The notes: generated by a model not told the origin, from the letters alone. A DNA stretch of 64,000 nucleotides from Clostridia bacterium (GCA_017504605.1 JAFVQW010000041.1:10391-74390); one strand, 5' to 3'. Positions 3 to 59,523 are shown, counted from the stretch's first letter. A program made the numbers and translations.

Positions 3-368
3 TGGGTTCCCGAGGCAGACACTCGCGAGGGAGGCTACGTGAGCGAGGATGCGGAGCAGACGGTCGGCACTCAGCGCAGCAAGAATGCGGGCAATCTCTA
101 CGGCTACGTGGATACTCTTGAGAGCTACGACACGGGCGACGACTTCCTCGGCAAGAATATCGAGGGCGTATATATGATGCTCGGAAACGTGCAGTATCTT
201 CTTGACACCTACGGTCGAGATTACAAGCAGTATACGAGTGCGACTATGCTCGAGCGTATAGCTGCCTTCGACCGCTATCGCGCCATCTACGACGGATACG
301 TTAAGAACGCCGTCAAGGGTGAGGCCGCGGCCTCTGAGATGGTAGGGAAGCTGCTCGGCTTGAAATAA
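3..368 (+). CDS. 3' end of a gene starting upstream of the window: C-terminal tail of a heparinase II/III-like secreted protein, paralog of 48114..52658
   Basis: The frame is open from nt 3 (WVPEADTREGGYV...). The segments WVPEADTR and YDGYVKNAVKGEAAASEMVGKLLGLK align with WAPAADTRGYI and YDGFIKNANAAAATARELVGELFGSR at the C-terminus of the 1514-aa protein. Confidence 0.65.
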   Translation, partial: WVPEADTREGGYVSEDAEQTVGTQRSKNAGNLYGYVDTLESYDTGDDFLGKNIEGVYMMLGNVQYLLDTYGRDYKQYTSATMLERIAAFDRYRAIYDGYVKNAVKGEAAASEMVGKLLGLK

Positions 369-395
369 CAAGCCTATAGCCTCCTCTGCTTTAAA

Positions 396-647
396 TCCAA
401 GCCGACGAAGAAGGCTTGGTATGGCATCACGCGTTAGCGTGTATGGAATCCCGACTTCGTCGGGTATGGCATCAATTCGCAGGGCGAACTGTATGGAATC
501 CCGACTTCGTCGGGTATGGCATCTGCCGAAGGCGGTATTTTCGTCGGCTTGATTCCATACCGTCTGTGACGGATTCCATACCGTCTGTGACGGATTCCAT
601 ACCGTCTGCGACGGATTCCATCCACGGCTTCGCCGTGATTTGAAGGA
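396..647. repeat. Hairpin-punctuated repeat array, type A (GTATGGMATC x5, then inverted GATTCCATAC x4)
   Basis: Forward 10-mers lie at 419, 441, 464, 491 and 514. Reverse-complement 10-mers lie at 551, 572, 593 and 614. Every 11-17 nt spacer is a 3-5 bp GC mini-hairpin (acgc-gtta-gcgt, ccgac-ttc-gtcgg, cgtc-tgt-gacg, acggc-ttc-gccgt). An outer stem pairs caagccgacgaa (398-409) with ttcgtcggcttg (540-551). The element recurs at 55789..56170. Confidence 0.85.
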
Positions 648-741: not shown

Positions 742-3700
742 ATGCGAAACTTAGCAAAAATCTTGGCTCTTTTGCTTGTTCTTGCTCTTTGCGTTACCGG
801 TATCGTCCTTGCCGTAAGCGCTGACGAGCCTGAGCAGACAATCACAGAGCCGACCTTCGCCGGTATCAAGCCTAATCTTGTAAGGATTGACTCGGCGATA
901 GCAGCACAGCTTGTAGAAGCAGGATTTAATTATCTTGAGTTTGCAGACGAGGCTGCCTTCAACACCGCGAATGCGGGCGGATACGACGCTCTCGCAGCAG
1001 GCGGTAAGACGGGCGAGATCAACGTAACGGGCGGTACTTACATCTACCTGCTCGCTAATACGACCCTGAAGAGTTATTCGATCTCCGCACACAACCTTAG
1101 CACCTGGATTAACCTTGGCGGCAATAAGATTACCTGGCAGTGCAACGGCGGTACCGGTTATGCCCACAACCTCGCTGTATTTGACGGTGACCTTTATCAT
1201 CCGTGGTTTAGTGGAACCTCCGGCCACGCCGCTTACAGAATGTCCGGCGGATCTACGTCTAACGTCTCAGTGGAAAAAGTTACTTTTTCGACGAACAGCA
1301 CGAGCGGCAGATTCTTCTCGAGCGAGGGGACTGCTACTCTCAATCTTTACGTTAATGATTCGACTGTTAACGCAGCCGGCAAGCCGTTCGTTCACATGGG
1401 ATTTGGCGCGGGTGACGCACCCACTGTCAATCTCATACTAAAGAAAACCAACATTACAACTTCCGGAGCAGTTGTAAACTTTGATAATAGTATCTGCACG
1501 GATAAATCGAATCTGTCGATTTATATCGACGGTGCGTCTAAGCTTGACGCTATCATACTTGCAAATGCTACGATCATCACTCCTACCGTTACCGTTGCAA
1601 ACGGTGCGAGCTTCACCGCCAACGGCCGTGCTGCAGTTCAGTCTGCGGGCACTCTCGTTACCGAGAGCGGTGCGGAATTATACAACACCGAGGAAGGCAC
1701 TCATCCCTTCGTTATGATGGTGCCCCCCACCATTCCCGACGATACCAACTTCACCGCGAGTGCGGACTTCAAGACTGCTAACGGCGCTTTCGTCGTATAC
1801 GCTAACGAGTTCGACTTCTACGCAGACCTTGAGGGTGGCGTTATCGACGGTCTCGTTGACGGCAATAGCGTTATCGTTGACGACAACGGTGACACCTTCC
1901 CCACCTCGGGCTACGTTTGTATGCTTCAGAACTACACGCTCCAGCCCGCGTCGACAATCAACGTTACCGGAAAGCTGAAGATTAACCTCGGCGGCACCAC
2001 CTTTACCGAGTCGAGTATTGATACTCTTACCGTCGCTGCTAACGGAGTTCTCGGCATTTACAACGGTAAACTTATAGATGGCTTAAACAGCAATAAACCC
2101 ACGAACACTCTCCTTGCCGGTACGACTCTCAAGGTTAAGAACGTTACCCTTGAGACGACGGGCAACTGGGAGAACTGGTCTTCCACCTTCTGCTTTAACG
2201 GTACGGCTGACATAAGCTTCGAGGACTGTGTTATAAACCATAAAAGCATGCAGACGACTATCGTTAAGCTTGCCGGCGCGGCTTCCTATAACATAGACCT
2301 TAAGAACGTTAATTACAGTAACAGCAAGGGCCACACGATAGCTACCGTGCACAACAGTGGTTACAACTATATTAATAAGAACGGCTCGTACTACGGCTTC
2401 GTATCCACCAACGTGGCGGCTACGATTAATCTCAGCGTTGACAAGGACTGCGTTGTAAACAGCGGTATTCTCGTTAACGCCATGACAACCGGTGCTAAGA
2501 TTACGCTTAACGCCGAGCTCGGATTTAAGATCTGGAGCAACGACTTCACCACCAGTTACATTGTGAAGTCTGTTCAGGATCTGGTAAATAAGAATAACGG
2601 TCTTCCTTGGAACCCCGAATCTGATTTGACCTATACCGCCGTCACTATCGTTGACACCCTTAACTTCACGGAGAACGGCGAGATTGTTACGGCTTCGTTC
2701 GCGAAGAACGGCGACTTCTACGTCGCTTGGAAGGCTGCCAGCGTTACCTGGTACGACAAGAACGGCGATGTTATCTCCTCCGTCGATAACCTCACTCCCG
2801 ATATGGCGCTCACCGCTCCTAAGGAGTTCGTTAACGAAATTATCGCGGTTGAGGGCGGCTACGCTATCAGAGGCGGCGCTTGGTCCGATACTGAGGGCGG
2901 CAGTGCGGTTGAAATTCCCACCGAGATTACTGCCGGCGCAGCTTACGCCTTCTACGAGGTATATACCGAGCAGGCAGCTACCATCGTCGTATTTGACGGC
3001 GAGGGCGGTAGTGCCGTTGATGCATATGCTACCACGAAGCTTACCAAGGATATCGTAGGCGAGTTCCCCGCAGGTGCGTACGTTCTCGTTTGCACCGACC
3101 TTACCGTTGATTACGGCGAAGTCGTTGATATGACCTTTGACAACTACAAGGGCGACCTTACCATCGACCTTGGCGGAAAAACCCTCACCCAGACGAGCTA
3201 CGGCTGGGGTATCGGTATGGCGTGGGCTACTCCCGCGGCAGGCGTTACCGTAACCATTAAGAACGGTGCTATCAACGTTGCTACCACCGCTACCAGCCAG
3301 AATGACATTGCAACTCTTATCTCGGGCACGGGCGCAGGTACGCTTAAGTTCCACGGCGTTGACATCACCACCCTTGGCCACGTAGGTAACATCAAGGCAG
3401 GCAGCGTTGTATTCGAGCTCTGCACCATCAAGCAGCCCAATACCGCTACCAACTGGTCTACGTTCACAATTGCCGACGTAAGCGCGGAAACGAGCGTCGA
3501 CCTCCAGCTCCTCGGAACCTGTCTGAACGTTCAGCAAAATAACGGCGCAAGGTTCACTAGCATAAATGCGGGAACGTACGCGAAGAACATCAGCATCACC
3601 GTTTCCGACTACGAGGGTACGTACTCCTATATCAGGAGTGCATATCTCTACACCTTCACGAGCAAGGGAACCGAAAAGCTTCACGCAGATACCAAGCTTA

Positions 3701-4842
3701 GCTTCACGCTCGAGAACTGCTACGTAAGTGCATACAACAACATGATATCGGGCTGCGGCACGTTCCTTTGGGACACCGACGGCACGGGTACCTATGCGGC
3801 GAACGCTGCGCTTGATAAGCAGAACGTCTCCTTCACCTTCGACAACTTCTTCTATTCGAGAAACGACCTCTTTGATTATGAGAAGAGAAAGAGCCACGTA
3901 ATTCTTAAGACGGCTAACCTCAACGCGTATAAGATAGTTTCGACGGCGACCTCGAGCAACAGCTTTATTGCAATTCCCGAGCTCAATATAGACGTTAACC
4001 TTACGCTTTACAGCGACTTCAACCTTAACCTCTATATTCCCACCGACTTCGTGGCAGACCAGATTACCTATCTCGGTCAGGTTATATTCGATAAGTCGCT
4101 TGCCGACACCTACGACGTAGTTGACGGAAAGTATAAGATAGTTATCGAGAACATTGCTCCCAACAAGGCTGCGAAGAGCATAGAGCTCGGCTTCGTATTC
4201 AACGAGACCGTAACCTTCAACGAGGGCACGAGTATGAGAGACAGAGACATATCTCATACTCTTACCGCAAAGTATTCGGTAATCAAGTATGCGGCTGACC
4301 TCATCGCTACCAACGACGCTAAGAGCGTTGCAGCTATGAAGGCTCTTCTCGGCTACGTTGACGCAGCATATGACAACTTCGACGGCGACGAGAGCGACGA
4401 GGCTACCGTAGCTCTTCTTGACGAGCTTATCGCTGAGAACGGCGTTGCTGCATTCCTTGCGGGCTACACTCCCAAGGCGAGTGAGGGCGACACCGACTTC
4501 GTTACGGTCACCGGCGTTACCGCTGCCTTCCAGATTGGCGCCGTATCTAAGCTCTACGTGACGTTCCCCGCAGGCGCTGAGTGGTCTATCGTAGGCGACA
4601 AGCTTACTAAGACCGGCAAGGGCGGCGAGTGCGTAATCGAGCTTCCCGCATACGCTCTTACCGACGTGCTTACCATAACCGTTGGCGGCGAGACTGCTAC
4701 CTTCTCCTTCGGAGAGTACGCAGAGTATCTTATGAATGACGGCATTGACAACGCGACAGAGGACGCTGTTCTCGTTGCAATGTACGCATACGGCGAGACT
4801 GCAAGAGCTCTCAAGGCTCAGGTCGACGCCGAGAATGCATAA
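742..4842 (+). CDS. P1: 1366-aa secreted protein, largest (three-module) member of the paralogous P family, function unknown
   Basis: Has a ribosome-binding site (aaaaggag) and a Sec signal peptide (MRNLAKILALLLVLALCVTGIVLAVSA/DEP). Three modules each start [GA]Y[VI]..L and lead to INLGG/IDLGGxxLT. Also contains a VTWYDKNGD...GGAWSDTEGG segment and the family C-terminal domain (LTLYSDFNLNLYIP ... FSFGEYAEYLMNDG ... MYAYGETARALKA). Confidence 0.9.
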   Translation: MRNLAKILALLLVLALCVTGIVLAVSADEPEQTITEPTFAGIKPNLVRIDSAIAAQLVEAGFNYLEFADEAAFNTANAGGYDALAAGGKTGEINVTGGTYIYLLANTTLKSYSISAHNLSTWINLGGNKITWQCNGGTGYAHNLAVFDGDLYHPWFSGTSGHAAYRMSGGSTSNVSVEKVTFSTNSTSGRFFSSEGTATLNLYVNDSTVNAAGKPFVHMGFGAGDAPTVNLILKKTNITTSGAVVNFDNSICTDKSNLSIYIDGASKLDAIILANATIITPTVTVANGASFTANGRAAVQSAGTLVTESGAELYNTEEGTHPFVMMVPPTIPDDTNFTASADFKTANGAFVVYANEFDFYADLEGGVIDGLVDGNSVIVDDNGDTFPTSGYVCMLQNYTLQPASTINVTGKLKINLGGTTFTESSIDTLTVAANGVLGIYNGKLIDGLNSNKPTNTLLAGTTLKVKNVTLETTGNWENWSSTFCFNGTADISFEDCVINHKSMQTTIVKLAGAASYNIDLKNVNYSNSKGHTIATVHNSGYNYINKNGSYYGFVSTNVAATINLSVDKDCVVNSGILVNAMTTGAKITLNAELGFKIWSNDFTTSYIVKSVQDLVNKNNGLPWNPESDLTYTAVTIVDTLNFTENGEIVTASFAKNGDFYVAWKAASVTWYDKNGDVISSVDNLTPDMALTAPKEFVNEIIAVEGGYAIRGGAWSDTEGGSAVEIPTEITAGAAYAFYEVYTEQAATIVVFDGEGGSAVDAYATTKLTKDIVGEFPAGAYVLVCTDLTVDYGEVVDMTFDNYKGDLTIDLGGKTLTQTSYGWGIGMAWATPAAGVTVTIKNGAINVATTATSQNDIATLISGTGAGTLKFHGVDITTLGHVGNIKAGSVVFELCTIKQPNTATNWSTFTIADVSAETSVDLQLLGTCLNVQQNNGARFTSINAGTYAKNISITVSDYEGTYSYIRSAYLYTFTSKGTEKLHADTKLSFTLENCYVSAYNNMISGCGTFLWDTDGTGTYAANAALDKQNVSFTFDNFFYSRNDLFDYEKRKSHVILKTANLNAYKIVSTATSSNSFIAIPELNIDVNLTLYSDFNLNLYIPTDFVADQITYLGQVIFDKSLADTYDVVDGKYKIVIENIAPNKAAKSIELGFVFNETVTFNEGTSMRDRDISHTLTAKYSVIKYAADLIATNDAKSVAAMKALLGYVDAAYDNFDGDESDEATVALLDELIAENGVAAFLAGYTPKASEGDTDFVTVTGVTAAFQIGAVSKLYVTFPAGAEWSIVGDKLTKTGKGGECVIELPAYALTDVLTITVGGETATFSFGEYAEYLMNDGIDNATEDAVLVAMYAYGETARALKAQVDAENA

Positions 4843-4855
4843 GGAGGGACATAAA

Positions 4856-4966
4856 ATGAAAAAGTATGAATCTCCCGAAATCAAAATCACGAGCGTAGAA
4901 GCATCGGATATTATTACCGTGTCCTACGGTAGTACCCCCTGGCTTAACGCAGGATTTGAGTGGTAA
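4856..4966 (+). CDS. Conserved 36-aa peptide MKKYESPEIKITSVEASDIITVSYGSTPWLNAGFEW
   Basis: AAGGAGGGA lies 6 nt upstream of the ATG, and the gene starts 13 nt after the P1 stop. A second copy at 59409..59519 is 29/36 identical, with 9 codons differing only synonymously. Confidence 0.7.
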   Translation: MKKYESPEIKITSVEASDIITVSYGSTPWLNAGFEW

Positions 4967-4973
4967 AAGCCAC

Positions 4974-5206
4974 GTTCCATATCCCCCTCGCCCTCGGGCG
5001 AGGGGATATGGAGTTATATTGCTCGCGCGGCGAGCAGTTATATTGTTGCTTCGCAACAGTTATATTCGCCTTGCGGCGAGTTAGATTAAAGTGAAAGTTG
5101 AAAACCGAGAGTTGAAGGTGACCGTATACATTTTCAATTTTCCGTTTTCCATTTTCAATTAAAATAGCGCGCACAGCGCGCATTCTATACACCCCGGGAG
5201 GTAATT
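4974..5206 (+). repeat. Conserved intergenic cassette, copy 1 (strong hairpin + AGTTATATT/hairpin array + AGTTGAA/TTCAATT arms + 5' leader of P2)
   Basis: Near-identical to 8389..8625 and related to 59524..59713. Contains a 15-bp stem at 4977..5011 (ccatatccccctcgcc/ggcgaggggatatgg). AGTTATATT occurs at 5012, 5036 and 5058 (AGTTAGATT at 5079), separated by mini-hairpins. A gcgcgc-aca-gcgcgc hairpin precedes the ribosome-binding site GGGAGG. Confidence 0.85.
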
Positions 5207-8388: not shown

Positions 8389-8625
8389 GTTCCATATCCC
8401 CTCGCCCTCGGGCGAGGGGGATATGGAGTATATTGCTCGCGCGGCGAGCAGTTATATTGTCGCTTCGCAACAGTTATATTCGCCTTGCGGCGAGTTAGAT
8501 TAAAGTGAAAGTTGAAAACCGAGAGTTGAAAGCTGTGCCGTTTTTTGCACTTTCAATTTTCCATTTTCCATTTTCAATTAAAATAGCGCGCACAGCGCGC
8601 ATTCTATACACCCCGGGAGGTAATT
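8389..8625 (+). repeat. Conserved intergenic cassette, copy 2 (upstream of P3)
   Basis: Same hairpin (8392..8426), same three AGTTATATT/hairpin units and same leader as copy 1. Identity continues through the first 21 nt of the downstream CDS (atgaaaaaaatgagaaggctt). Confidence 0.85.
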
Positions 8626-11600: not shown

Positions 11601-11705
11601 TGCGATATGCTCGCGGCGACTCTTCGCCTCGGCAAGAGCGCGAGAAGGTACGAGGGCGCGGGACTGCCCGATACGCCGAGTATCGAGCCCGACTTCGAGT
11701 TCTAA
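8626..11705 (+). pseudogene. P3: P-family member interrupted by a frameshift near 8767-8775 (or an assembly error)
   Basis: The signal-peptide ORF 8626..8841 (MKKMRRLTSFVLVLALIAAVLA...) is in frame 1. Family homology (SYVGYESEKNYRYDLADGVFDGIALG...VDLSGHKMN) continues in frame 0, which opens at 8769 after a TGA at 8766-8768 and runs to 11705. The 8982 ATG is internal. Confidence 0.7.
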
Positions 11706-15990: not shown

Positions 15991-16093
15991 TATAAAAAGT
16001 TAAAATAAGACGGTTTTTATAACAATTTTCCACCTTGTGCGCGTGTATTTAACTATGCTATCATTAAGTTGAAAATAAAAAGGGAGGGCAAGC

Positions 16094-18645: not shown

Positions 18646-18661
18646 GAAGGGTGAAAGAAAA

Positions 18662-22886: not shown

Positions 22887-22908
22887 CAGATGTTTGAGGA
22901 TAAGATTT

Positions 22909-23340
22909 ATGCAAAATAAAAAGGAAAAAAGTGTGCGAAAAAAGTTTTCCATATTCACAAAAGAAAAAAGAGAAAAACTCGAGGTCCTGTGCAGCAAAGG
23001 GGTTCCAGTAAAAGATATAGCAGCAGAGCTGGGGTATACAGAGGTGAGCATATATAGAGAACTTAAACGTGGTACTTCTACAGGCGGTAACAAAACGGGA
23101 ATGACCAAGTATAGCGCCAAGCGAGCAGAAGAAAACGCGAGAAAGCACTCATCTACAAAAGGAGCATCGCTGAAGATAAAAGATGACTATGAATTTGCTT
23201 GCTTTTTGGATAGAATGATCACAAAGGGATATACGCCGACCGAAATAATAAAATACATAGAACAAAAAAACCTTGTTTTTAAAACTCAGATTTCTCGGGC
23301 TACACTTTACAACTATGTTGAACAGGGAATTATTACGAGC
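22909..23340 (+). mobile_element. IS30-family transposase N-terminal (HTH) remnant without DDE domain, in frame with tadA
   Basis: AT-rich island within GC-rich flanks. GVPVKDIAAELGYTEVSIYRELKRG, YSAKRAEENARK, GYTPTEIIKYI and ISRATLYNYV match the IS30 N-terminal HTH layout. No catalytic domain follows. Confidence 0.6.
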
Positions 23341-43824: not shown

Positions 43825-44718
43825 TCAGAGCGCCCTTTTGTTTGTGAAGGCACGCTTCTTGTATGCCACGGGGGTCATACCCGTATAGCGCTTGAAGGTC
43901 TTTGAGAAATAGTTCGGCGTGTCGAAGGCGAGCCGCTCGGCAATCTGCTTGACGGTGTAGTCTCCCTCGCGCAGATACTGCTTTGCCGCCTCTACCTTAA
44001 GCTTTGTAAAGTAGGCCATAACCGTCTTGCCCGTGGCGCGCTTGAACTCTCGGAATATGTAAGCGCGGCTGTATCCGACCGCCGCCGAGAGCTCGTCAAC
44101 CGATAGCGTGCTCTCGATTTTTTCTCTCATAACCGCGATGCAGTCGTCCACCGCCTTCGATTGCAGCTTCTCCGTGGGAAGGAAAATACTGTTGCTCCTG
44201 CCGTTTTCCGTCATTTGGCGCATAAGGCTGATGAGAAAAAGCTCAAGATAATTTTTTATCAGCTGCTGACCGCCGAGGGTGGGGTGCTCGAGAAGGTGCA
44301 GGCCGGTGTCCTCGGGAGTGGAGAAGGGAATATCGAAGGTACGCTTCGCCTCCTCTACGATGCTGTAAATGAAGCGCACGAGGCTCTTGTCGGGCCGCAC
44401 GCGGCAGCCCTCGAAAAAGCGCATAGCCTCGGACTTACATTCAAAGGAAATTACAAAGACGTTCGGCGCGCGTCGGCCGTTGGCGCTGTGCGCGTGAAAT
44501 TCTCCGGGCTTGTGAAAGGCAACCGTGCCCTCCTCAAGCGTGTATTCCTCGTCACCAGCCGTACAGAGAATGCTCTCCTTGTCGGCGTACACCAGCTCCC
44601 AGAAATCGTGTACCTCCCCCGAGAAGCTGAAATTCTTTTCAAATTCAAAGTAGTGTATAGTGACGATTTTATTGATTACAATGAGATTTTCGAGCTTGTG
44701 TTTGAAATATTTCTTCAT
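43825..44718 (-). CDS. AraC-family transcriptional regulator, divergent from the secreted-protein operon
   Basis: N-terminal cupin-like sensor and C-terminal AraC HTH (YIFREFKRATGKTVMAYF...PNYFSKTFKRYTGMTPVAYKK). Confidence 0.85.
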   Translation of the reverse strand: MKKYFKHKLENLIVINKIVTIHYFEFEKNFSFSGEVHDFWELVYADKESILCTAGDEEYTLEEGTVAFHKPGEFHAHSANGRRAPNVFVISFECKSEAMRFFEGCRVRPDKSLVRFIYSIVEEAKRTFDIPFSTPEDTGLHLLEHPTLGGQQLIKNYLELFLISLMRQMTENGRSNSIFLPTEKLQSKAVDDCIAVMREKIESTLSVDELSAAVGYSRAYIFREFKRATGKTVMAYFTKLKVEAAKQYLREGDYTVKQIAERLAFDTPNYFSKTFKRYTGMTPVAYKKRAFTNKRAL

Positions 44719-45098: not shown

Positions 45099-48095
45099 AT
45101 GAAAAAAACGAACGGGAAGAGGATAGCACTTTTGGCGGTGACTGTGCTTATGTGTGTTGCCGCGGTCTTCACGCTTGCCACGTCTGCGGCGAGGGTGGGC
45201 AGTCTCGACGAGGCTAACCGACTTCTTGAGCAGGTGAAAAAGGTAGATATAGGAGAGGACAGCGCGGCGGCGTGCGAGGAAATGTCGAGCGCCATCTTCA
45301 ATCTTCGCTCCTACATACTTCGTATGCCTCTTGACGAGAGCGAGAGCGGCTATAACGAGTTCGCCTTCGAGTACGGCAAGGAGCAGTTCAGATATGCCGA
45401 GCTGATAATGAAGGTGTTCGACGAGGCGAAGGAGAAAACCGATGCAAGCGGCAATCCCTCCCCCGACGTTCCCGCGATGCAGAGCGCGCTTGACGACATG
45501 TTCGTGCTTCTTTCCGCCGATGATTTTATGATAGAGCGAGCGCTCGTTTATAATGAGGGTGAGGACGGAGTTTTCAGTGCGGATTACGATGCTCTTAACG
45601 AGAAATACGCCGAGGCTCCCTTCGGCTGCGTAGAGGCTATGCTTGACAATCTTCCGAACGAGGCGGATATGGCGGCGGCGCTTACCAACGCGGCGGCGTT
45701 CATCGAGCGAAACGGAATTAATATTAATGATGCAAGCAACGCGAGCATCAAGGAAAAGCTTTTTAACGCGAGACTTGCTTGCGCTAACGGGCTTCTCGAT
45801 GCGGTTGCCGACGATGCCGCGGGGATTGACGCGCAGAAGAACGGCGTGGCACTCCGTAAGCTCTCGGCGTTTATCAAGGCAAACCCTCTCGGTAAGGACG
45901 AGACCGAGGGCAGCGATTATATGACCTTTATGGCCGCGTATGAGCAGCGTATTGAGGTACAGAACGAGGCGCTTCGCGCCGCTCGCGAGGCTCTTACGTC
46001 CAAGGCGAGCTTCGGCGACCACTACGCGGGAGTGCTCTTCTTCAAGGGAACGGCCTTCGCCGTAGGAAATCAGTCTATAAACTATGCCGACGTTGACAGT
46101 GGCGCCGACGGCGACAACGAGTACTTCACCGTCAGATATGAGAACACAAAGGTGACCCATACTCATATAAGCACCGCGAGCGTTCCCGACAACAGTCGCG
46201 GCGTCGTCGTGGAGTTTGACTTTACCACCTTCGGCGATATGCCGAGCGGCTCGGTCATCATCGAGCGCGGCTCGTACACCTTCCCCGACGGACAGACCTC
46301 GGGAGTTGAGTTCTTTAAGATAAACAAGGACGGTGTCACGATAGGAAACACGACCGTCGCGGGGCTTGTACAGCCCGGCGAGTGGACGCACTTCACCCTC
46401 ATTATCGACCCCGATTGCAATGCTACGCTCTACGTCGATTACGTGCTTGTCGGCAGTGTGAGCCTTAAGGTAAGAAACTACGTCTTCGAGATTGGCGCTA
46501 TAAGAATGGGCGCACAGGCGGCCTCGGGTGAGTTCTCGATTGACAATTATATGGCGTATACCGGCACCTCGATACGCGACTGCGACTATCTCGCACAGCT
46601 CCGTGCCGATACCGAGGCCTACTTCGTACGTCTTTATCAGGGACTTAAGCACAGGCTTACCGACCACAGGGTGCTTCTCAACATCTACGACGAGTGCGCG
46701 GCGCTCGTTAACGAGTTCACTCCCGAAACCGAGGAGGGCATAGCGGCCGTCGAGGCCTTCCGCGCTATGAGCCGCTCCGACGTGCAGGATAAGGCGCTCG
46801 AGAATGCGAGAGAGAAGCTCGCGGAGAAGATAACCGCAATCAAGGATAAGCCGCGCGACAGCTCGACCTCTAAGGAGCGCATAGCGATGCTCTCCAACCT
46901 TGATAAATTCCTTGCCTACAACGAGGGCATTATGAGCGAGACCGAGAACGACGAGCTCTACGTTGCGATACAGAAAATAAAGAAGCAGCTCGACGACGAG
47001 GACTTCGTAGCCCTTCTCGTTACGGCTGTGAACGACTTCTTCGCCGAGAGCGATGCGTTCAAAATTAAAGCAAAATACGATATGGCAAAGAAATACATTA
47101 CCGAGGCCGAGAGCGACGAGGAGATTATGGCTATGCGCCGTCTCTCGGGCTTTGCGAGCTTCTCGGTTGCGTACGAGCGCTTTAAGACCGAGGGTCCTAC
47201 CCACTACGGCGACCTCGTCAGCATTGACAACACCGAGATTTTCGTGTCTATGATGAAATACGTTGCGTCGCTTATTTCCGACCCCGATTGGAAGACCAAG
47301 CATTACGACGAGATTGACAAGTACATAATGCTTGCCTCCGAGCGCGTGGAGGATGGAGCCTACGACGAGCTTTACAGCGGCTTTAGCGAGGCCTACGAGG
47401 TATATCTCGAGTACGCTCACTACTTCTTCCTCGAGCGTCAGCCGGGATATATTACCGAGCTTCGCGGCCTGCTTGATAAATGCATAGCCGCGGTTCACCC
47501 GGTTGAGAAGGCGGGCGTGATCGCGTACATCGGCGACTATATAGACAACACCGACCTTGATTTTGAGAACTCCGAGATTATAGCACTCGTTGACGAGTAC
47601 GAGGAGCTTCTCGCGACCCTTGACGGTGCCGACGGCGCGTACGAGGAGCTTCGCACGGAGTATACCGAGAAATTCATTGAAGCCGTGGCGCTTATTGCCG
47701 AGGCGGAGGGATACGCCGCTCGCCGAGCGCTCGCGGACGAGGCGCGTGTATATTATACGCACATTAACAGAACGGGCGACGGGGTCTCGGCCGCAGAGGC
47801 AGAGTACCTTGAGATTGAGGCCGCTCTTGGCGCGGTGGAGGCTGTTGCAAAGAGATTTATCTCGGAGTATGCGCTTTTAGCCTCTGCACGTACTAACGAG
47901 GAGCGCTTCGCCGCACTCGTTACCCTCTCGGCTCTTTACGCCGAGGGAATAGAGACCGAGGTGGCGGGTGCCGCCGCGGCAATTGACGGATACAATTCCG
48001 CAATCGACGATATGAACGAATTTATAAACAAGCATAACGGCGAGCTTGATGAGCTGCTTCGCGCATCGCTTGCAGCGCTCGTCAAGGCTAAATAA
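45099..48095 (+). CDS. 998-aa secreted, mostly alpha-helical protein with a central LamG/concanavalin-like insert; function unknown
   Basis: Ribosome-binding site ggagg and signal peptide MKKTNGKRIALLAVTVLMCVAAVFTLATSA. Flanks are rich in A, E and L. The central segment YFTVRYENTKV...GEWTHFTLIIDPD...FSIDNYMAYTG looks LamG-like. Confidence 0.8.
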   Translation: MKKTNGKRIALLAVTVLMCVAAVFTLATSAARVGSLDEANRLLEQVKKVDIGEDSAAACEEMSSAIFNLRSYILRMPLDESESGYNEFAFEYGKEQFRYAELIMKVFDEAKEKTDASGNPSPDVPAMQSALDDMFVLLSADDFMIERALVYNEGEDGVFSADYDALNEKYAEAPFGCVEAMLDNLPNEADMAAALTNAAAFIERNGININDASNASIKEKLFNARLACANGLLDAVADDAAGIDAQKNGVALRKLSAFIKANPLGKDETEGSDYMTFMAAYEQRIEVQNEALRAAREALTSKASFGDHYAGVLFFKGTAFAVGNQSINYADVDSGADGDNEYFTVRYENTKVTHTHISTASVPDNSRGVVVEFDFTTFGDMPSGSVIIERGSYTFPDGQTSGVEFFKINKDGVTIGNTTVAGLVQPGEWTHFTLIIDPDCNATLYVDYVLVGSVSLKVRNYVFEIGAIRMGAQAASGEFSIDNYMAYTGTSIRDCDYLAQLRADTEAYFVRLYQGLKHRLTDHRVLLNIYDECAALVNEFTPETEEGIAAVEAFRAMSRSDVQDKALENAREKLAEKITAIKDKPRDSSTSKERIAMLSNLDKFLAYNEGIMSETENDELYVAIQKIKKQLDDEDFVALLVTAVNDFFAESDAFKIKAKYDMAKKYITEAESDEEIMAMRRLSGFASFSVAYERFKTEGPTHYGDLVSIDNTEIFVSMMKYVASLISDPDWKTKHYDEIDKYIMLASERVEDGAYDELYSGFSEAYEVYLEYAHYFFLERQPGYITELRGLLDKCIAAVHPVEKAGVIAYIGDYIDNTDLDFENSEIIALVDEYEELLATLDGADGAYEELRTEYTEKFIEAVALIAEAEGYAARRALADEARVYYTHINRTGDGVSAAEAEYLEIEAALGAVEAVAKRFISEYALLASARTNEERFAALVTLSALYAEGIETEVAGAAAAIDGYNSAIDDMNEFINKHNGELDELLRASLAALVKAK

Positions 48096-48113: not shown

Positions 48114-51100
48114 ATGAAAATCAGAAAAACGAGCAGCAGAATACTGTCCTTTTTACTTCTCCTTTCTATCATAGCATCTCTGTTTTCGGTTTTTGCCTAT
48201 GCCGCGACTGACGAGAGTGTCGGTACAGCCGAGAGTGCGGAGGGAGCAGGACTCAGCGTAGTCTATAACAGAGGCTTCGCCGAGGGTTGGGATTACACCA
48301 ACGGACTTACCCCTTATATCGAGGGTGACGTTTCCTACGGTATAGAATACGTGAAGATGAGTGCCTCGAGGTACGAATACTATCTCAACGTTGAGGTAAA
48401 CGGAGAGAGCGAGGGCTACCTTGAGATTGATGCGGGGGATAATCTCCCCGCCTCGGGCAAGCAGTTCCTTACCTTCGATGCCCGCGCCGAGGAGGATGCG
48501 GATATTGTCGGAGCCGTAATTGCTATGACGGCGGGTGAGGGCTCGGCCTCGGAGATGATGCATCTTCTGTCCTACGTCGACGGCGAGATTTACTCGCTCG
48601 GAAGGAAGGTAGGAGAGGCTGACGGCAGCTGGCAGCACTTCTTATTTGAAATTGATTACGACTACGAGGGCGAGAGCGAGAGAGAATTTCTCGTAACCCT
48701 CTATCTTGACGGCGAGGCCTTCACGAGCGTACAGAGCGCGGGCAAGGGCGGCTTCGGCATCGGCAGCGTGCTTATCGGCGCAGGCGCCGACGAGGACCGC
48801 ACGGGCGGCTCCTATCAGCTCGATACGGTTGCGCTCTACCACGGAGTAGACGCCCCGACCGATATTCCGAACGGAAACTTCGGCACGGCGGTAGACAGAA
48901 CTCTCGTGCGCAACTTTACCATTCTCGGCCTCGGTGAGAGGACCGACGACCCGAACGTGCTCTCGGGCACTCCCGCGCTCGACCGTATCAGCACCTCGAG
49001 CGTCAGCGTGCTTTACAACCGCCACTATGGCGAGGGCTGGGATTGGAGCAACGGCTTCAACAGCCTCAGCACGAGCAAGCTCGCGAGCAATCTCGCCGAG
49101 CTTCGCAGCGATTACAGCTTTATAGTCAACAAGAGCGAGAACTTCCTCAACCATTATCTTGCGATTGAGAAGAAGAACGACACGCTCGGCTACGTATATC
49201 TCGCACCCGAGTCAAACGACAACTCGCCGCTTATAGCGAGCACCTCGGGTAAGGTGTTCATCGAGTTTGATATGAAGACCTCGGATAACAACGGCACGAT
49301 GCTTCTCACTCTTATAACCGACCCGAAGTCAGAGGGTGACACGCTCGTCTACACCGATAACGGAGAGCTCTATCTGCTCGGCCGGAAGGTTGGTACCGTC
49401 GGCGGCGAGTGGCTCCGCATTTCGATAATGCTCGATTTTGCGGGCATATACCGCGACGGCTCCTACAGTGCCGAGGCGCATTACGGCTCCGAGGGCGGGG
49501 TCGTGTACTCCTCCTATACCGCTACGACCCCGACCGTTACGAATTTGAGATTCGGCACGGCGGATAAGAAGGCCGGCAACACGGGCGACTGGTTCGGCAT
49601 CGATAACCTCGCGGTTTATTGGGGTGCCTCTACCTTCGTCAATCTCCCGAGTGACGAGCTCGGTGAGCTCGTTAATACGAGACTTGAAAAGGATTTTGCA
49701 CTCTCCGTCGAGGGCGAGTCGCTTACGGTGAACGAGATTTACAATGCCTCGCTTACTATGAAGGTCGGCTCGAGCTTCGCATATCTTCTCGGTAAGCAGG
49801 TGAAAATCTACGAGACCGAGAGCGGCGAGCGCTACGGTGCACCCGTTAAGGTTGACGGCAAGGTTCTCCTGCCGCTTCAGTCTATTATCGACTTTACGGG
49901 AGCAACGCTCATTCCTCACGATGACTTCAAGAGCTTCGAGGTCTTCCTCGGCTCGACACTCTCGTACCTCACGCTCGGCTCGACCGATGCTATAATCGGC
50001 GGTAAGCGTGTCAGCCTCGCGGCGGCTCCCGCGGTGGTTGAGGCGGGCGAGGGAATGTCCTACGTGGTTATCGGAATGGACGACCTTGAGGCTATTTTCC
50101 CCGGCTTCTACGTGGTTTGGGACGATTGCGGACTTCTCACGGTTACCGAGTATAAGAACTTTATAAACAGAAATATGAGCGGCGCGTTCGATACTATGGT
50201 ATCGATTATGCGTAAATTCCTCTACGATTACGTGGACGGGGATACCGTTTACGAGATGGCGAAGGAGCACACGAACAACTTCGACCACCCCTACCTGTTT
50301 GCTAATCAGGATAAGTTCGACGAGCTTCGGAGAGTATATTACGCCGCACCCGGCGACGAGGACTTCAACGCCGAGCTCGCGGGCTATATGCAGGTTCGCG
50401 TTGACCGTGCCGACGAGCGCCTCGGAGCGCTTGCCGAGCTTGACGAGACGGGCAGATACCTCGGTGTTAAGCCCGAGAAGATTCCCGTGAACACCAACTA
50501 CGTCACCGAGCCCGGCAACAACGGCTACGACGTCGGCGGACGACTTAATCTTATTTACCGTGACGATTATACCGGCGCTCTTGAGGATATTGCCTTCGCA
50601 TACCAGGTTACGGGCAATACCGTCTACGCCGAGTTCCTTCTCGACTTCATCGGCTACTTCTGCGACGACGAGCTCTGGCCTCACTGGGGTCCCTCTCACT
50701 TCCTTAACGTCGCGGAGAGCGTTATACACATGGCGATAGCCTACGACTGGTGCTACGACGCGTGGATGGAAATAAGCCCCGAGCAGACTATGCACATAAG
50801 AGCGAAGCTCTATGAGAAGGGCGGCTATCACGGCTACAACTCGATGCTTACGACCGTTTGCCCGAAGGAATTTATATCGGCTAAGGGCTACCGCTGCTAC
50901 AACTACCACATAACGACTAACAACTGGAACACGGTATGCTCGAACGGTATGGTGGTCACGGCGCTCGCGCTCTTTGACATTGACACCAACGCCGATATGG
51001 ATAAAATCAATAACAACGAGGCCCTCTCGCAGATGAAGGCGCTCGTTTCGGGCGATATCCGAAGCCTTGTCAACTACGCGATGCATTACTACCAGTTCGA

Positions 51101-52658
51101 CGGCTCCTACTCCGAGTCGGTCGGATATTGGGATGCCTCGACACAGGGCTATCACCAGATGACCGCGGTGCTTGAGTCGGTTACCGGCTCCACCTTCGGC
51201 TACCTCGATACCTGGGGTATGGATAGGACCTACTATTTCGCTCTCTCCTTTGAGTCGAGCGACCACTACACCTGGCCCTTCCACGACGACTCTGCGAGCG
51301 AGCTGTCTACTCCGCTTATGATGTATTATTCCACGGCCTCGGGCGACAGCGTTCTCGGTCAGATAAGGAAGATACAGCTGGCACAGGGTAAGACTCCGAC
51401 GATATGGGATGCGATTTACTATCAGGATGCCGATGCAGACGGAGATATTGAGCTTCCCCTTACCTTCACCGCATCGAAGATAGAGGCCTTCGTGGCCAGA
51501 ACCTCGTGGGAGAAGGGAGCGCTCTTCACGGGAATTATGGGCGGATATAACGGCGAGGGCCACGCTCATATGGACTCGGGCAACTGGGTTTACTACAACA
51601 AGGGCATTAACTGGTTTAAGGACCTTGGAAGCGACAACTACAACGTATATAACTATTGGAGCTCCTACCACGTATACAGAAGGAGCGCCGAGGGACACAA
51701 CCTCTTTATAATGAACACATCCTCCTACGAGTACGGTATGGACCTTCAGGGCACGGGCTACCTCACCGACACACTGGTTAACGAGCACGGCTCCTACGCC
51801 ATCATTGACCAGTCCGAGGTATACGGCGGCTCGAAAATGGTTAACTATGCTCGCCGCGGTATGCTTATTACCAACGACAACAACACCGTTGTTATTCAGG
51901 ACGAGGTACAGTTTAAGACCATGACCAAGTCCTATTGGATAGCACACGTGAACGTTGCGCGAAGCAACGTGATGGGCTTCGTTGAAAAGATTGAGGTTTC
52001 AGCGGATAAGAAGGTGGCCTATCTCCACGGTGTCAACCGGAGCAAGGGCGAGAGATACACCCTGCGCGTAACGCTTATCACGGCGGTTCTCGGTGCGGGC
52101 TTCGAGGTCTGGGATGCGGGTATGAGTGACTTTGCGCTTCCCGGCACCTACCGCCCCGGCTACTCCGAGTCTATGGGCGGAGAGCCTCAGACGAGTAACG
52201 TCGGTGCACAGAGGCTCGTCGTAGAAATAAAGGACAGAACCGAGGTTAAGATAGCCGTGGCTATCGAGCTTGTAGACAGAGAAAACGAGCTTGAGACCGG
52301 CTACAAGATGACCGATATGAAGAAGTGGGCGCCCGCGGCCGACACTCGCGGATATATAGCAGATGCGGTCGAGACCCGCTCCTCTCACGTAAACGGCGTT
52401 TATACCAACGTATCTCAGCTCCAGGCCTTTGAACCGAGCACTCTCCTCGGCGTGAATATGGAGGAGGCCTACAAGAAAATGGCTAATATAGGTTACATAG
52501 TAAGTAAGAACCAGAATATAGTCAACGTTGATTATTACAAGGAGCTCCTTGTAACCTACTACGACTGCCGTGCGACATACGACGGCTTCATTAAGAATGC
52601 CAATGCGGCGGCGGCCACCGCACGCGAGCTGGTCGGTGAGCTCTTCGGCTCCCGATGA
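48114..52658 (+). CDS. 1514-aa secreted heparinase II/III-like polysaccharide lyase with two LamG-like modules and a copper-amine-oxidase-N-like domain
   Basis: Signal peptide ...SLFSVFAYA. Two LamG-like modules (GSWQHFLFEIDYD..LDTVALYHG; GEWLRISIMLDF..GIDNLAVYWG) and a VKVDGKVLLPLQSIIDFTGA stalk. DHPYLFANQDKFDELRR is toroid-like. GEGHAHMDSGNWVYYNKGINWFKDLG and AEGHNLFIMN are heparinase II/III C-domain-like. Confidence 0.8.
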   Translation: MKIRKTSSRILSFLLLLSIIASLFSVFAYAATDESVGTAESAEGAGLSVVYNRGFAEGWDYTNGLTPYIEGDVSYGIEYVKMSASRYEYYLNVEVNGESEGYLEIDAGDNLPASGKQFLTFDARAEEDADIVGAVIAMTAGEGSASEMMHLLSYVDGEIYSLGRKVGEADGSWQHFLFEIDYDYEGESEREFLVTLYLDGEAFTSVQSAGKGGFGIGSVLIGAGADEDRTGGSYQLDTVALYHGVDAPTDIPNGNFGTAVDRTLVRNFTILGLGERTDDPNVLSGTPALDRISTSSVSVLYNRHYGEGWDWSNGFNSLSTSKLASNLAELRSDYSFIVNKSENFLNHYLAIEKKNDTLGYVYLAPESNDNSPLIASTSGKVFIEFDMKTSDNNGTMLLTLITDPKSEGDTLVYTDNGELYLLGRKVGTVGGEWLRISIMLDFAGIYRDGSYSAEAHYGSEGGVVYSSYTATTPTVTNLRFGTADKKAGNTGDWFGIDNLAVYWGASTFVNLPSDELGELVNTRLEKDFALSVEGESLTVNEIYNASLTMKVGSSFAYLLGKQVKIYETESGERYGAPVKVDGKVLLPLQSIIDFTGATLIPHDDFKSFEVFLGSTLSYLTLGSTDAIIGGKRVSLAAAPAVVEAGEGMSYVVIGMDDLEAIFPGFYVVWDDCGLLTVTEYKNFINRNMSGAFDTMVSIMRKFLYDYVDGDTVYEMAKEHTNNFDHPYLFANQDKFDELRRVYYAAPGDEDFNAELAGYMQVRVDRADERLGALAELDETGRYLGVKPEKIPVNTNYVTEPGNNGYDVGGRLNLIYRDDYTGALEDIAFAYQVTGNTVYAEFLLDFIGYFCDDELWPHWGPSHFLNVAESVIHMAIAYDWCYDAWMEISPEQTMHIRAKLYEKGGYHGYNSMLTTVCPKEFISAKGYRCYNYHITTNNWNTVCSNGMVVTALALFDIDTNADMDKINNNEALSQMKALVSGDIRSLVNYAMHYYQFDGSYSESVGYWDASTQGYHQMTAVLESVTGSTFGYLDTWGMDRTYYFALSFESSDHYTWPFHDDSASELSTPLMMYYSTASGDSVLGQIRKIQLAQGKTPTIWDAIYYQDADADGDIELPLTFTASKIEAFVARTSWEKGALFTGIMGGYNGEGHAHMDSGNWVYYNKGINWFKDLGSDNYNVYNYWSSYHVYRRSAEGHNLFIMNTSSYEYGMDLQGTGYLTDTLVNEHGSYAIIDQSEVYGGSKMVNYARRGMLITNDNNTVVIQDEVQFKTMTKSYWIAHVNVARSNVMGFVEKIEVSADKKVAYLHGVNRSKGERYTLRVTLITAVLGAGFEVWDAGMSDFALPGTYRPGYSESMGGEPQTSNVGAQRLVVEIKDRTEVKIAVAIELVDRENELETGYKMTDMKKWAPAADTRGYIADAVETRSSHVNGVYTNVSQLQAFEPSTLLGVNMEEAYKKMANIGYIVSKNQNIVNVDYYKELLVTYYDCRATYDGFIKNANAAAATARELVGELFGSR

Positions 52659-56170: not shown

Positions 56171-56224
56171 GCTCTAAAAATGCATAATGCAGAATTCATA
56201 ATGCATAATGCATAATTAATTAAT

Positions 56225-59395: not shown

Positions 59396-59408
59396 GGAGG
59401 GACGAAAA

Positions 59409-59519: not shown

Positions 59520-59523
59520 AACC

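Follow-up and report, generated by a model that had tools for sequence, protein, structure and literature searches.

Secreted proteins with repeated, predicted beta-helix modules and a new C-terminal domain family beside a PL35-like lyase gene in a Clostridia bacterium

What are the six related secreted proteins (P1-P6) encoded near a predicted polysaccharide lyase in an uncultured gut Clostridia bacterium built of, and what might they do there? The window in the present study, i.e., the whole stretch of 64,000 nt that was analysed (GCA_017504605.1 JAFVQW010000041.1:10391-74390), contains exactly six of these paralogs, all on the + strand and all of one family, and no further ORF in the window was matched by the P-family domain HMMs. 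P1-P6 are Sec-secreted multidomain proteins with pairwise identities of 17-41% over more than 900 aa, and they split into two subgroups, one of P1, P2, P4 and P5 and the other of P3 and P6 (Table 1).

Table 1. Features of the P loci and their neighbours, with coordinates counted from the first letter of the window.
Feature	Position	Strand	Description	Basis
Q2a	39..368	+	3' end of Q2 paralog preceding P1	
P1	742-4842	+		
P1 signal peptide	742..822	+	aa 1-27, end AVSA/DEP	read directly from sequence
P1 extra N-terminal module	919..1731	+	aa ~60-330; NYLEF...YIYLLANTT...INLGGNKITW	hhalign, module HMM
P1 cap and module 1	1780..2718	+	cap FVVYANEFDFYADLEGGVIDG, GYVCML; module INLGGTTFT...	module-1 HMM E 2.8e-115; motif scan
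P1 spacer	2731..2970	+	VTWYDKNG...GGAWSDTEGG...YAFYEV	spacer HMM E 1.4e-25
P1 cap 2 and module 2	2971..3975	+	TIDLGGKTLTQ, WATPAAGVTVTIKNG...	module HMM E 3.1e-41
P1 C-terminal domain	3976..4842	+	~288 aa, and stop codon	C-terminal HMM E 3.1e-72
P2	5207..8383	+	1058 aa; signal peptide, cap-module 1, spacer, cap-module 2, C-terminal domain	
P3	8626..11705	+	subgroup with P6; two ORFs in the window, 8626-8841 and 8982-11705	
AraC-family regulator	43825..44718	-	divergent, upstream of Q1	Pfam HTH_18/HTH_AraC
Q1	45099..48095	+	secreted, mostly helical; weak ConA-like/Laminin_G_3 match; first gene of Q1-Q2-P-P-P block	
Q2	48114..52658	+	secreted PL35-like (heparinase II/III-like) predicted polysaccharide lyase, directly upstream of P4	
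P4	52655..55777	+	1040 aa counted from this ATG; database representative begins 7 aa later	
P5	56273..59395	+	1040 aa; paralog chosen for modelling	
P5 signal peptide	56273-56353	+		
P5 cap and module 1	56435-57277	+		
P5 spacer	57290-57532	+		
P5 cap and module 2	57533-58507	+		
P5 C-terminal domain	58508-59392	+		
P6	59702..62929	+	1075 aa; subgroup with P3	

Domain architecture of the six paralogs

The original prediction had proposed one order of elements for all six paralogs, and this order was found in 6/6: a signal peptide, a cap with a module, a spacer of ~80 aa, a second cap with a module, and a C-terminal domain, with P1 alone carrying a third, N-terminal module. The signal peptide of P1 is made up of an N-terminus with K/R, a hydrophobic core and an AxA site, without a lipobox. 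A signal peptide in every paralog, as had been claimed, holds overall but not for P3 as read in the window: this assembly has lost a single base at ~8770, which puts both the signal peptide and the YxhY motif of P3 into another frame (ORF 8626-8841). P3 is intact (1026 aa) in two independent assemblies, and the aligned one (locus L012) is 99.9% identical to the window. Likewise, the shared motifs are collinear in the paralogs, but a motif scan showed that the strict patterns fail in some of them, e.g., YxhY begins with F in P1, and P4, P5 and P6 carry the deviating forms INCGRKKLT, INFGG and LDLNGYNLH, respectively. Tandem copies of P-type genes also occur in other MAGs.

Profile-profile comparison demonstrated a modular build with a repeated module. 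Modules 1 and 2 are homologous (hhalign 96.9%, E 1.4e-10), in agreement with the claim that the second is of the same kind as the first, and residues 60-294 of P1 represent a further copy of the module-1 type (hhalign 94.7%, E 5.8e-8, 220 columns; E 1.4e-17 for the extra module against a broader module HMM), just as a third module ahead of the common core had been predicted. Furthermore, this extra module aligns collinearly with the first of three modules in the homologs P0021, P0002 and P0010. Judged by sequence, the three-module form is a conserved subfamily that includes these homologs and not a peculiarity of P1, a point that the original prediction missed. Each module would be entered via a small cap (YxVY-helix...GYVYLL...hDLxGxxhT), and the cap motif YxVY...GYVYLL...hDLxGxxhT has no match in the Pfam or NCBIfam models searched.

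Predicted fold of the modules and affinity of the spacer

In the full-length AlphaFold2 (AF2) model of P5 (pLDDT 82.7), residues 106-335 and 478-745 consist of strands only, with rungs every 21-36 residues that follow the pattern h-x-h-x-h-[NDG]-G-x-h-x-h (e.g., VTVTVKNGTIDI, LKFHKIDIVS, SFIMELGSIDT, KYEFVCDGVYLY and VSFYFDNFIG). The modelled modules of P5 thus have the regular ~20-35-residue rungs of an all-beta solenoid, and module 1 of P1 is predicted to be a beta-solenoid by homology to this model. When the whole chain was used as query against the PDB, the 13 best Foldseek matches were all right-handed beta-helix proteins (the HK620 tailspike, another phage tailspike, GH55 and PL6), the best at E 0.012 with TM <=0.24 and none significant. 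The Pfam beta-helix profiles had no match in the six paralogs; among 37 homologs, the family matched by most was Beta_helix PF13229 (3/37, sub- or near-threshold, best E 1.7e-4), and NosD and Cthe_2159 were each matched by one, none of these matches being individually significant. The parallel beta-helix that had been suggested for these proteins is therefore a likely fold, not a proven one, and the modules probably form right-handed parallel beta-helices.

The top structural neighbours of the modules belong to the Pec_lyase-like clan and related right-handed beta-helix proteins (PL6 chondroitinase B, GH55 SacteLam55A, HK620/P22 tailspikes), with which they share an all-beta build, one rung per 21-36 residues and a hydrophobic/Asn-Gly ladder; GH55 resembles the P proteins in joining two beta-helix domains in tandem within a single chain. 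Unlike the Pec_lyase-like proteins, however, each P module has its own cap motif, and the modules show neither a significant sequence or structure match to these proteins nor conserved catalytic residues.

The spacer had been likened to the Flg_new repeat. Pfam gave no Flg_new match for the whole P proteins, nor, with the E cutoff relaxed to 10, for any of the six spacers taken alone, and direct profile comparison of the spacer with canonical Flg_new units was not significant. Nevertheless, a probable link can be traced through P0114, a protein matching Flg_new at 1.3e-50 over 6 stretches, in which type-A repeats alternate with canonical Flg_new repeats. The spacer profile matches these type-A repeats (hhalign 98.2%, E 2.9e-14), and the isolated type-A repeats match Flg_new positions 1-65 end to end at E 0.0017-0.04, under the 27-bit gathering score. 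By this indirect route, the spacer appears to be distantly related to the InlB B-repeat (Flg_new), at a level below the Pfam threshold; the proposed likeness is supported as probable homology via P0114 intermediates and fails as a direct Pfam match. With the InlB B-repeat (PF09479, PF18998) the spacer shares its length of ~80 aa and the pattern hxVxW/F-x-x-x-G...P...GW...YYA, and the B-repeat structure 7pv9 is among the Foldseek matches (E 0.26), but the P spacer is a single copy between modules and not an array.

The C-terminal domain and its cassette

The C-terminal domain, previously put at ~330 aa, measures ~285-295 aa and carries in P1 the motifs LTLYSDFNLNLYIP, YSVIKY, AAYDNF, FSFGEY and MYAYG. 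It is conserved, Tyr-rich and acidic (median pI 4.4), with conserved residues, mainly Tyr, Ala and Leu, located in helices. Modelled alone, the domain of P5 (AF2, pLDDT 92.2, pTM 0.88) is predicted to fold into a seven-stranded beta-sandwich, four helices, a five-stranded sheet and two helices. No Pfam, NCBIfam or PDB-sequence match was obtained for it: the Pfam scan of 37 C-terminal domains found no family common to more than one member (a weak SlpA match, E 3.6e-4, appeared in 1/37), and NCBIfam returned nothing for the six P proteins. By profile or motif, the domain could not be placed in any of the known anchoring and docking families (SLH, CWB2, LPXTG, dockerin, GW, LysM and SlpA), and the six translated P proteins have neither an LPXTG motif nor a C-terminal transmembrane segment. 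With a fold match defined as Foldseek E <= 1e-3 or TM >= 0.5 over the domain, none was found in the PDB (best E 5.1e-3, MHC-I-like chains, TM 0.17-0.19, rmsd >23 A, the matches covering only Ig-like subdomains of 60-77 residues) or in BFVD (best E 3.1e-3, TM <=0.21). These results support the proposal of a new family, which is widespread in metagenomes, an exhaustive HMMER search placing the domain in 686 clusters.

The domain occurs once per protein, nearly always as the very last part: 96/125 instances stop no more than 5 aa short of the last residue. In 91-94 of 112 proteins a module ends no more than 80 aa before its start, and the hDLxG...NG motif is found upstream of it at a median distance of 249 aa (0 in shuffled controls). 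The last module and the C-terminal domain are a cassette shared with carbohydrate-active enzymes of related bacteria, which had also escaped the original prediction. The cassette stands at the C-terminal end, and N-terminal Pfam or PDB matches, where there are any, are to extracellular carbohydrate-active enzyme domains (PL35-like lyase, GH2, GH78, esterases and deacetylase). The cargo domains recognised so far are GH2, GH78, SASA esterase, polysaccharide deacetylase, DUF4886 and CBM-type domains, and P0090, P0094, P0107 and P0147 join a Q2-like PL35 core to the C-terminal domain. Most cassette-bearing proteins have no recognisable enzyme domain. Like dockerin, SLH, CWB2, LPXTG and T9SS C-terminal modules, the domain forms, as one copy, the very end of secreted proteins whose N-terminal cargo varies and includes CAZymes. 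It has no sequence or fold similarity to these modules, however, is much larger and acidic, and in nearly all cases has a beta-helix module in front of it.

Gene neighbourhood and possible role

Both P clusters follow the order AraC, Q1, Q2, P, P, P, the locus in L012 giving the full order AraC, Q1a, Q2a, P1, P2, P3; Q2a is 44% identical to Q2, and an AraC gene lies likewise upstream of Q1a and upstream of P0004. The N-terminal 300 aa of Q1 are found fused to a P-type protein in P0015. PL35 glycosaminoglycan lyases, represented by PDB 8khw and 8khv (eLife 2025, PMC12088678), are the nearest known relatives of Q2, though not of the P proteins. Residues 807-1278 of Q2 align to PL35 structures at E 1e-27 to 1e-18 (8khw at E 9.7e-28, 8khv, and 9o3q, 'PL35 chondroitinase'), and its Pfam matches are Hepar_II_III_C and Cu_amine_oxidN1. 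Q2 differs from the PL35 lyases in its length of 1514 aa and in extra ConA-like and Cu_amine_oxidN1-like regions.

Architecture, homology relations, fold confidence, distribution, domain fusions and gene order are results of the analysis; non-catalytic binding, an attachment role of the C-terminal domain and the substrate class are inferences. The most likely function, which we put forward tentatively, is that the P proteins are non-catalytic, glycan-targeting surface-display or binding proteins. Each would consist of two beta-solenoid modules in a row, or three in P1, the last two separated by a divergent InlB-B-repeat-like domain. The beta-helix modules may act as a rigid non-catalytic stalk or a glycan-binding surface, and the C-terminal domain would hold the protein to a fixed partner: the cell envelope, another protein or the substrate polysaccharide itself. 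In this way the six paralogs, variable as they are, could capture or present a uronic-acid-containing polysaccharide for the co-encoded PL35-like lyase Q2, and would do so under AraC-type control; we infer the link between P proteins and Q2 from adjacency and fusion only. In C. thermocellum, the lyase-like beta-helix protein Cthe_2159 binds both cellulosic and pectic polysaccharides and is not known to catalyse their cleavage. As a secreted clostridial protein (PF14262) whose beta-helix is a binding surface and not an enzyme, it may serve as an analogue of the role proposed here, although the P proteins differ in their tandem modules, B-repeat-like spacer and new C-terminal domain; PF14262 itself was matched in one P-family homolog only, below threshold (E 0.051).

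The modules could instead be catalytic, forming a new polysaccharide lyase or glycoside hydrolase family that acts with Q2 on the same substrate, with the C-terminal domain as a carbohydrate-binding module. Precedents exist in PL1/3/6/9, GH28, GH55 and GH87, and this reading, unlikely but to be taken seriously, draws on structural neighbours that include PL6 chondroitinase B, alginate lyases, GH55 laminarinase, polygalacturonase and tailspike depolymerases, on the adjoining PL35-like lyase gene and on a multi-paralog expansion typical of CAZyme loci. Against it, no conserved charged cluster, Asp/Glu/Lys/Arg/His constellation or Ca2+ site was found on the helix bodies and faces of 37 homologs, where columns conserved at >=70% hold G, N, F, L, Y, I and T, with Asp only at module entry; this depends on an alignment of 20-40% identity, in which variable rungs may be misaligned. 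Pfam gave no CAZyme-type match, the same modules also follow genuine catalytic domains in other proteins, which have no need of a second catalytic unit, and the C-terminal domain is single and terminal, unlike most CBMs.

A rather unlikely alternative is that the C-terminal domain helps the beta-helix before it to fold, caps it or makes it oligomerise, a function akin to that of the C-terminal domains in phage tailspikes and fibres, and is neither an anchor nor a binding domain. Its near-obligatory position after a module, at the C-terminal end, suits such a structural role equally well, the conserved Tyr, Ala and Leu in its helices are consistent with a packing interface, and trimeric tailspikes are among the structural neighbours of the modules; yet it has no similarity to tailspike C-terminal or chaperone domains in the PDB or BFVD, 285 aa is large for a cap, ~20/112 proteins have no adjacent module by the profile used, and modules 0 and 1 of P1 are not followed by a domain of this kind. 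Variable surface-coat proteins or adhesins (S-layer-like, towards host or particle), diversified by phage or immune pressure and unlinked to the neighbouring lyase, seem improbable: six divergent paralogs on a conserved scaffold, all secreted and acidic, each gene with its own conserved upstream region and terminator-like hairpins, and tandem arrays in other MAGs would fit, but the gene order kept in duplicate suggests a functional link, the fusion of Q1 and Q2 parts to P-type parts elsewhere argues for one, and profile scans found no known S-layer or wall-binding domain in the P proteins.

Returning to attachment of glycan-targeting P proteins by the C-terminal domain, wall-binding domains such as the Lactobacillus SlpA anchor are basic; the domain is acidic, unlike these, and this speaks against an attachment to anionic wall polymers by electrostatics alone. 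It is a speculative and rather unlikely idea that uncultured gut Oscillospiraceae/Ruminococcus-like Clostridia use the module and C-terminal domain as a so far unrecognised system of cell-surface display or docking. If true, this would be a display system on a new fold, a functional analogue of dockerin-cohesin or SLH anchoring, whose cassette would tether dozens of distinct binding proteins and enzymes outside the cell, perhaps through a dedicated partner such as Q1.

Element order and repeated modules of the six paralogs

The six secreted-protein genes P1 to P6, arranged in the clusters P1-P3 and P4-P6, share pairwise identities of 17-41% and split into two subgroups (P1, P2, P4, P5 versus P3, P6). 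Exactly these six ORFs were matched when HMMs of the individual parts were run against the six-frame translation of the window; P1 and P5 are named "MAG: hypothetical protein [Clostridia bacterium]" in the database, and Pfam and NCBIfam scans returned a match for none of the six (0/6). In agreement with the original prediction of a common element order, alignment and motif scanning found the paralogs collinear: a signal peptide, the YxhY...DG motif, GYVxxL, hDLxGxxhT and a module body, followed by a W[YH]xxxG...GW spacer, a second hDLxGxxhT, WATPAAGVTVT and the C-terminal domain with its motifs LTLYSDFxLNxYIP, YSVxxY, AAYDxF, FSFGEY and MYAYG. In their strictest wording, the predicted motifs are each satisfied by three to five paralogs, whereas the remaining paralogs bear conservative variants in the same alignment columns.

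Features of the window and their positions (nt)
Feature	Position	Strand	Length	Remark
P1	742-4842	+	1366 aa	NCBI MBR2343660.1, locus tag IKA64_05335
P2	5207-8383	+	1058 aa	
P3	8982-11705	+	907 aa	as ORF
P4	52655-55777	+	1040 aa	
P5	56273-59395	+	1040 aa	locus tag IKA64_05515
P6	59702-62929	+	1075 aa	
Signal-peptide ORF of P3	8626-8841		71 aa	other frame
Q1	upstream of P4		998 aa	secreted, helical; weak Laminin_G_3 match
Q2	upstream of P4		1514 aa	PL35 structure matches
Q2 paralog at window start	39-368			
Q1 and Q2 of the block before P4-P6	45099-52658			
AraC-family regulator and L-rhamnose operon	14986-19474			
HTH_38/deaminase ORF	22894-23829			
Inter-P DNA	4829-5272, 8389-8691, 59382-59779			
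Second intergenic repeat family	380-640			upstream of P1
Second intergenic repeat family	55789-55945, 56004-56160			upstream of P5
21-nt tandem repeat	551-621			
7-nt tandem repeat	56179-56216			
12-nt tandem repeat	63262-63383			
ORF with 12-nt repeat	63255-63881	-		

P3 as read in the window lacks both the signal peptide and the YxhY motif, which are encoded in the other frame (MKKMRRLTSFVLVLALIAAVLA...). The P1-P3 locus is present in two independent metagenome assemblies, and alignment with one of them (L012, 99.9% identical to the window) revealed that a single T is absent at ~8770 (GCTGAG[T]ACAGC), dividing the gene into the 71-aa signal-peptide ORF and the 907-aa ORF. Since P3 is intact in both assemblies (L012 and L013; 1026 aa, with signal peptide and YSYVGYESEKNYRYDLADGVFDG), the claim of a signal peptide in all six holds for the genes as a family but fails for the sequence as it reads in the window. 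The deletion marks P3 as a strain-level pseudogene or stems from an error in the assembly.

The repetition of the modules was evident from profile comparison, in which module 1 (P5 residues 55-335) and module 2 (residues 421-745) aligned over 168 columns (96.9% probability, E 1.4e-10) with their GYVYLL, hDLxGxxhT and NG motifs matched to one another. The third module proposed for P1 was borne out, its residues 60-294 aligning to the module-1 profile (94.7%, E 5.8e-8, 220 columns) and giving no alignment to the spacer and C-terminal-domain profiles; a broader module HMM matched P1 three times (E 1.4e-17, 1.3e-23 and 3.1e-41) and each other paralog twice. The three-module form is not unique to P1, for the homologs P0002 (1281 aa), P0010 (1358 aa) and P0021 also have the extra module and line up with P1 collinearly, starting at residue 1; other relatives (P0030, P0100) have between four and seven modules.

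In an AlphaFold2 model of P5 built on a 37-sequence alignment (mean pLDDT 82.7, pTM 0.59), both module bodies contain strands only, spaced every 21-36 residues, and a small strand-helix-strand cap precedes each body (residues 59-125 and 425-467). The modelled rungs (VTVTVKNGTIDI, LKFHKIDIVS, SFIMELGSIDT, SLEFYGVYHH, IKVIVGDYEG, KYEFVCDGVYLY and VSFYFDNFIG) follow the same h-x-h-x-h-[NDG]-G-x-h-x-h pattern as parallel beta-helices. With the whole chain, Foldseek found no PDB match at E <= 1e-3; the 13 best sub-threshold matches were right-handed beta-helix proteins without exception (13/13), namely the HK620 tailspike and one other phage tailspike, GH55 SacteLam55A and PL6 chondroitinase B, and PL6 alginate lyase, the P22, phi297 and Acinetobacter phage tailspikes and polygalacturonase came further down. 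The commonest Pfam match among 37 full-architecture homologs was Beta_helix PF13229 (3/37, best E 1.7e-4), NosD and Cthe_2159 each gave one weak match, and a PDB sequence search with the family profile returned noise only. The suggested parallel beta-helix is supported by strand-only bodies and regular rungs but not by a significant PDB fold match, and on the model the module bodies are likely beta-helices.

The spacer, a domain of ~80 residues between the last two modules, had been called reminiscent of Flg_new. Neither Flg_new nor Flg_new_2 matched the six isolated spacers even at E 10; nevertheless the wording is fair, as a link runs through homologs bearing arrays of spacer-type units (P0068, P0114, P0144 and P0149, from the family-profile search). 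P0114 alternates between such units (YTIKWYDQNGNLL...EFLGWS...SFYACV) and canonical Flg_new ones (YTLTFDSNGG...), the whole protein matching Pfam Flg_new at 1.3e-50 over six stretches. The spacer profile matched the spacer-type units (98.2%, E 2.9e-14), which in isolation align with positions 1-65 of Flg_new, the E values of 0.0017-0.04 staying under the gathering score; its direct comparison with the canonical units was not significant. On these alignments, a divergent B-repeat-like domain is the most fitting description of the spacer.

The C-terminal domain and its cassette

Modelled by itself from 37 diverse sequences (P5 residues 738-1040; pLDDT 92.2, pTM 0.88), the C-terminal domain of ~285 residues (P5 751-1035) shows a seven-stranded sandwich, four helices, a five-stranded sheet and two helices. 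Conservation peaks at tyrosines and small residues in the helices, with Y854 and Y1001 invariant and Y877, Y801, G798 and A1029 next, and the domain is acidic (median pI 4.4 over 125 instances). A Pfam scan of the 37 domains found no family common to them, a PDB sequence search with the C-terminal profile returned no relative but noise, and Foldseek against PDB and BFVD gave nothing at E <= 1e-3, superposition being limited to Ig-like pieces of 60-77 residues and whole-domain TM to 0.21 or less. The best PDB Foldseek matches, MHC-class-I-like chains (FcRn, MILL2, MR1, CD1d; E 5e-3 to 0.1), were rejected as relatives at TM <=0.19 and rmsd >23 A, the likeness being one of make-up (an Ig-like sandwich plus a sheet with helices).

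An exhaustive HMMER search over 1.84 billion cluster representatives recovered 686 family proteins at E <= 1e-3, 349 at <= 1e-10 and 70 at <= 1e-30, and a word-indexed protein search was nearly blind to the family (4 matches with the six-paralog profile, 2 with the C-terminal profile). The suggestion that the C-terminal domain forms a new family holds: it is widespread in metagenomes and has no match in Pfam, NCBIfam, PDB sequences or PDB/BFVD folds. About 45 of the best 150 HMMER matches have the full P architecture. Named sources are Clostridia MAGs only (Ruminococcus sp., Eubacteriales, Oscillospiraceae and a goat-colon Clostridia bacterium); loci in other MAGs were located with a degenerate DNA pattern for NLTLYSDFxLNxYIP, and neighbouring family copies occur there too.

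Near-complete C-terminal domains were present in 125 of 152 retrieved family proteins, always as a single copy (125/125) and ending within 5 residues of the protein end in 96. Among the 112 proteins with enough sequence upstream, the iterated module profile placed a module end no more than 80 residues before the domain in 91-94, and the composite motif hDLxGxxhT...hxhxNGxh stands ahead of it at a median distance of 249 residues (shuffled controls 0); the last module and the C-terminal domain thus form one cassette. In 25 long members, the cassette follows GH2, SASA esterase, polysaccharide deacetylase, DUF4886, metallophosphoesterase, F5/8-type-C, NPCBM or Big_5 matches, the N-terminal part of the majority being free of any Pfam match; P0004, a distant member, bears a GH78 rhamnosidase.

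The PL35-like lyase block and proposed roles

The window is chromosomal, with trkHA, a rhamnose catabolism operon, RNase R, trmD/rimM, uvrC, pheST and the arg operon between the P clusters, and Rfam and tRNA scans of it were empty. A phage (tailspike-like) origin of the P proteins was rejected on this housekeeping context (pheST, arg operon, uvrC, trmD), the Sec signal peptides and the lack of a BFVD match for the C-terminal domain.

Upstream of P4 lie Q1 and Q2, with an AraC regulator placed divergently. In Q2, residues 807-1278 gave structure-database matches to PL35 glycosaminoglycan lyases (8khw, 8khv, 9o3q; E 9.7e-28 to 1.1e-18), a family described in PMC12088678; Q2 in the window has no P-type C-terminal domain. 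The window start falls inside a Q2 paralog, and the gene order in L012 (1-9365) is AraC, Q1a, Q2a, P1, P2, P3, where Q2a is 44% identical to Q2 and Q1a 30% to Q1, so the whole block of AraC, Q1, Q2 and three P genes is present twice in the genome. No Q1/Q2 homologs were seen in nine loci of other MAGs, which are short (4.8-8 kb) and bear neither way on co-occurrence.

The P proteins are secreted, as read from their signal peptides, and of a modular solenoid build, as modelled. We tentatively favour, while granting it somewhat less than an even chance, a joint reading in which the modules would be non-catalytic stalks or glycan-binding surfaces, the C-terminal domain would attach the protein to the substrate, to a partner or to the cell envelope, and the six divergent paralogs would offer different binding surfaces for a uronic-acid-containing polysaccharide that Q2 would cleave. 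The modules are read as non-catalytic because the conserved residues of the helix bodies are structural only and the cassette also stands behind bona fide catalytic domains; that they are themselves catalytic, which would make the P family a new CAZyme family, we regard as unlikely. Acidic pI and near-obligate coupling to a module are the chief points against a simple wall anchor, and a role of the C-terminal domain in folding or oligomerisation seems to us distinctly unlikely. In other organisms the parts are fused: P0090, P0094, P0107 and P0147 have a Q2-like core ahead of the C-terminal domain (E 1e-96 to 1e-121), and in P0015 a P-type protein follows the first 300 residues of Q1. These fusions argue for a functional tie between the P proteins and the PL35-like lyase, and a variable coat or adhesin with no relation to the lyase appears quite improbable.

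The fold classes of module and spacer are already known; neither Pfam (2025 copy) nor NCBIfam 20 has an entry for the P family, its cap motif or, above all, its C-terminal domain, although the family numbers sequence clusters in the hundreds and as many as six copies within 64 kb. It is a sizeable, unannotated family of secreted surface proteins, of predicted beta-helix build and with a new terminal domain, for which a putative role in organising glycan degradation is plausible. Gut Clostridia that break down complex glycans are mostly uncultured, and enzyme retention at their surface is known chiefly from cellulosome, SLH and sortase systems. The cassette recurs C-terminally across PL35-like lyases, GH2, GH78, esterases and enzyme-free beta-helix proteins; were it an attachment or substrate-capture device, it would represent a new mode of organising extracellular glycan degradation in Firmicutes, supply a sequence marker for the secreted glycan-processing proteins of these organisms and add a confidently predicted domain without known structural relative.

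Two neighbouring loci were also recorded. Downstream of the P1-P3 cluster, at a distance of 3 kb and with trkHA on the opposite strand in between, are the AraC-family regulator and L-rhamnose operon (FGGY kinase, RhaA isomerase at E 5e-187, class II aldolase), which together with the GH78 of P0004 may hint at a rhamnose-containing substrate. Another ORF joins an N-terminal HTH_38 to a cytidine/adenosine deaminase (MafB19-deam 3.5e-37, dCMP_cyt_deam_1 5.6e-30); because it begins at TTG, the HTH part may come from an over-extended start.

Repeats in and around the intergenic DNA

The inter-P DNA is far more conserved than the P genes: blocks of 41-144 nt common to P1>P2, P2>P3 and P5>P6 are mostly 73-99% identical (63% for the most divergent copy), and the flanking proteins are 20-35% identical. 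Rich in GC-rich hairpins (e.g., GTTCCATATCCCCTCGCCCTCGGGCGAGGGGGATATGGAGT, ATTGCTCGCGCGGCGAGCAGT) and extending into the codons for the P2 and P3 signal peptides, the blocks have no match in Rfam; they could be an intergenic repeat element, or shared terminator/promoter/leader units that gene conversion has homogenised. A second repeat family occurs upstream of P1 and, in two copies 99% identical, upstream of P5; it includes the 21-nt tandem repeat GATTCCATACCGTCTGTGACG (x3.4), and the 7-nt tandem repeat is AATGCAT (x5.4). Finally, the 12-nt tandem repeat TCGGGAAGACCC (~10 copies, 91% matches), within a minus-strand ORF, would encode a repeated tetrapeptide in one reading frame.
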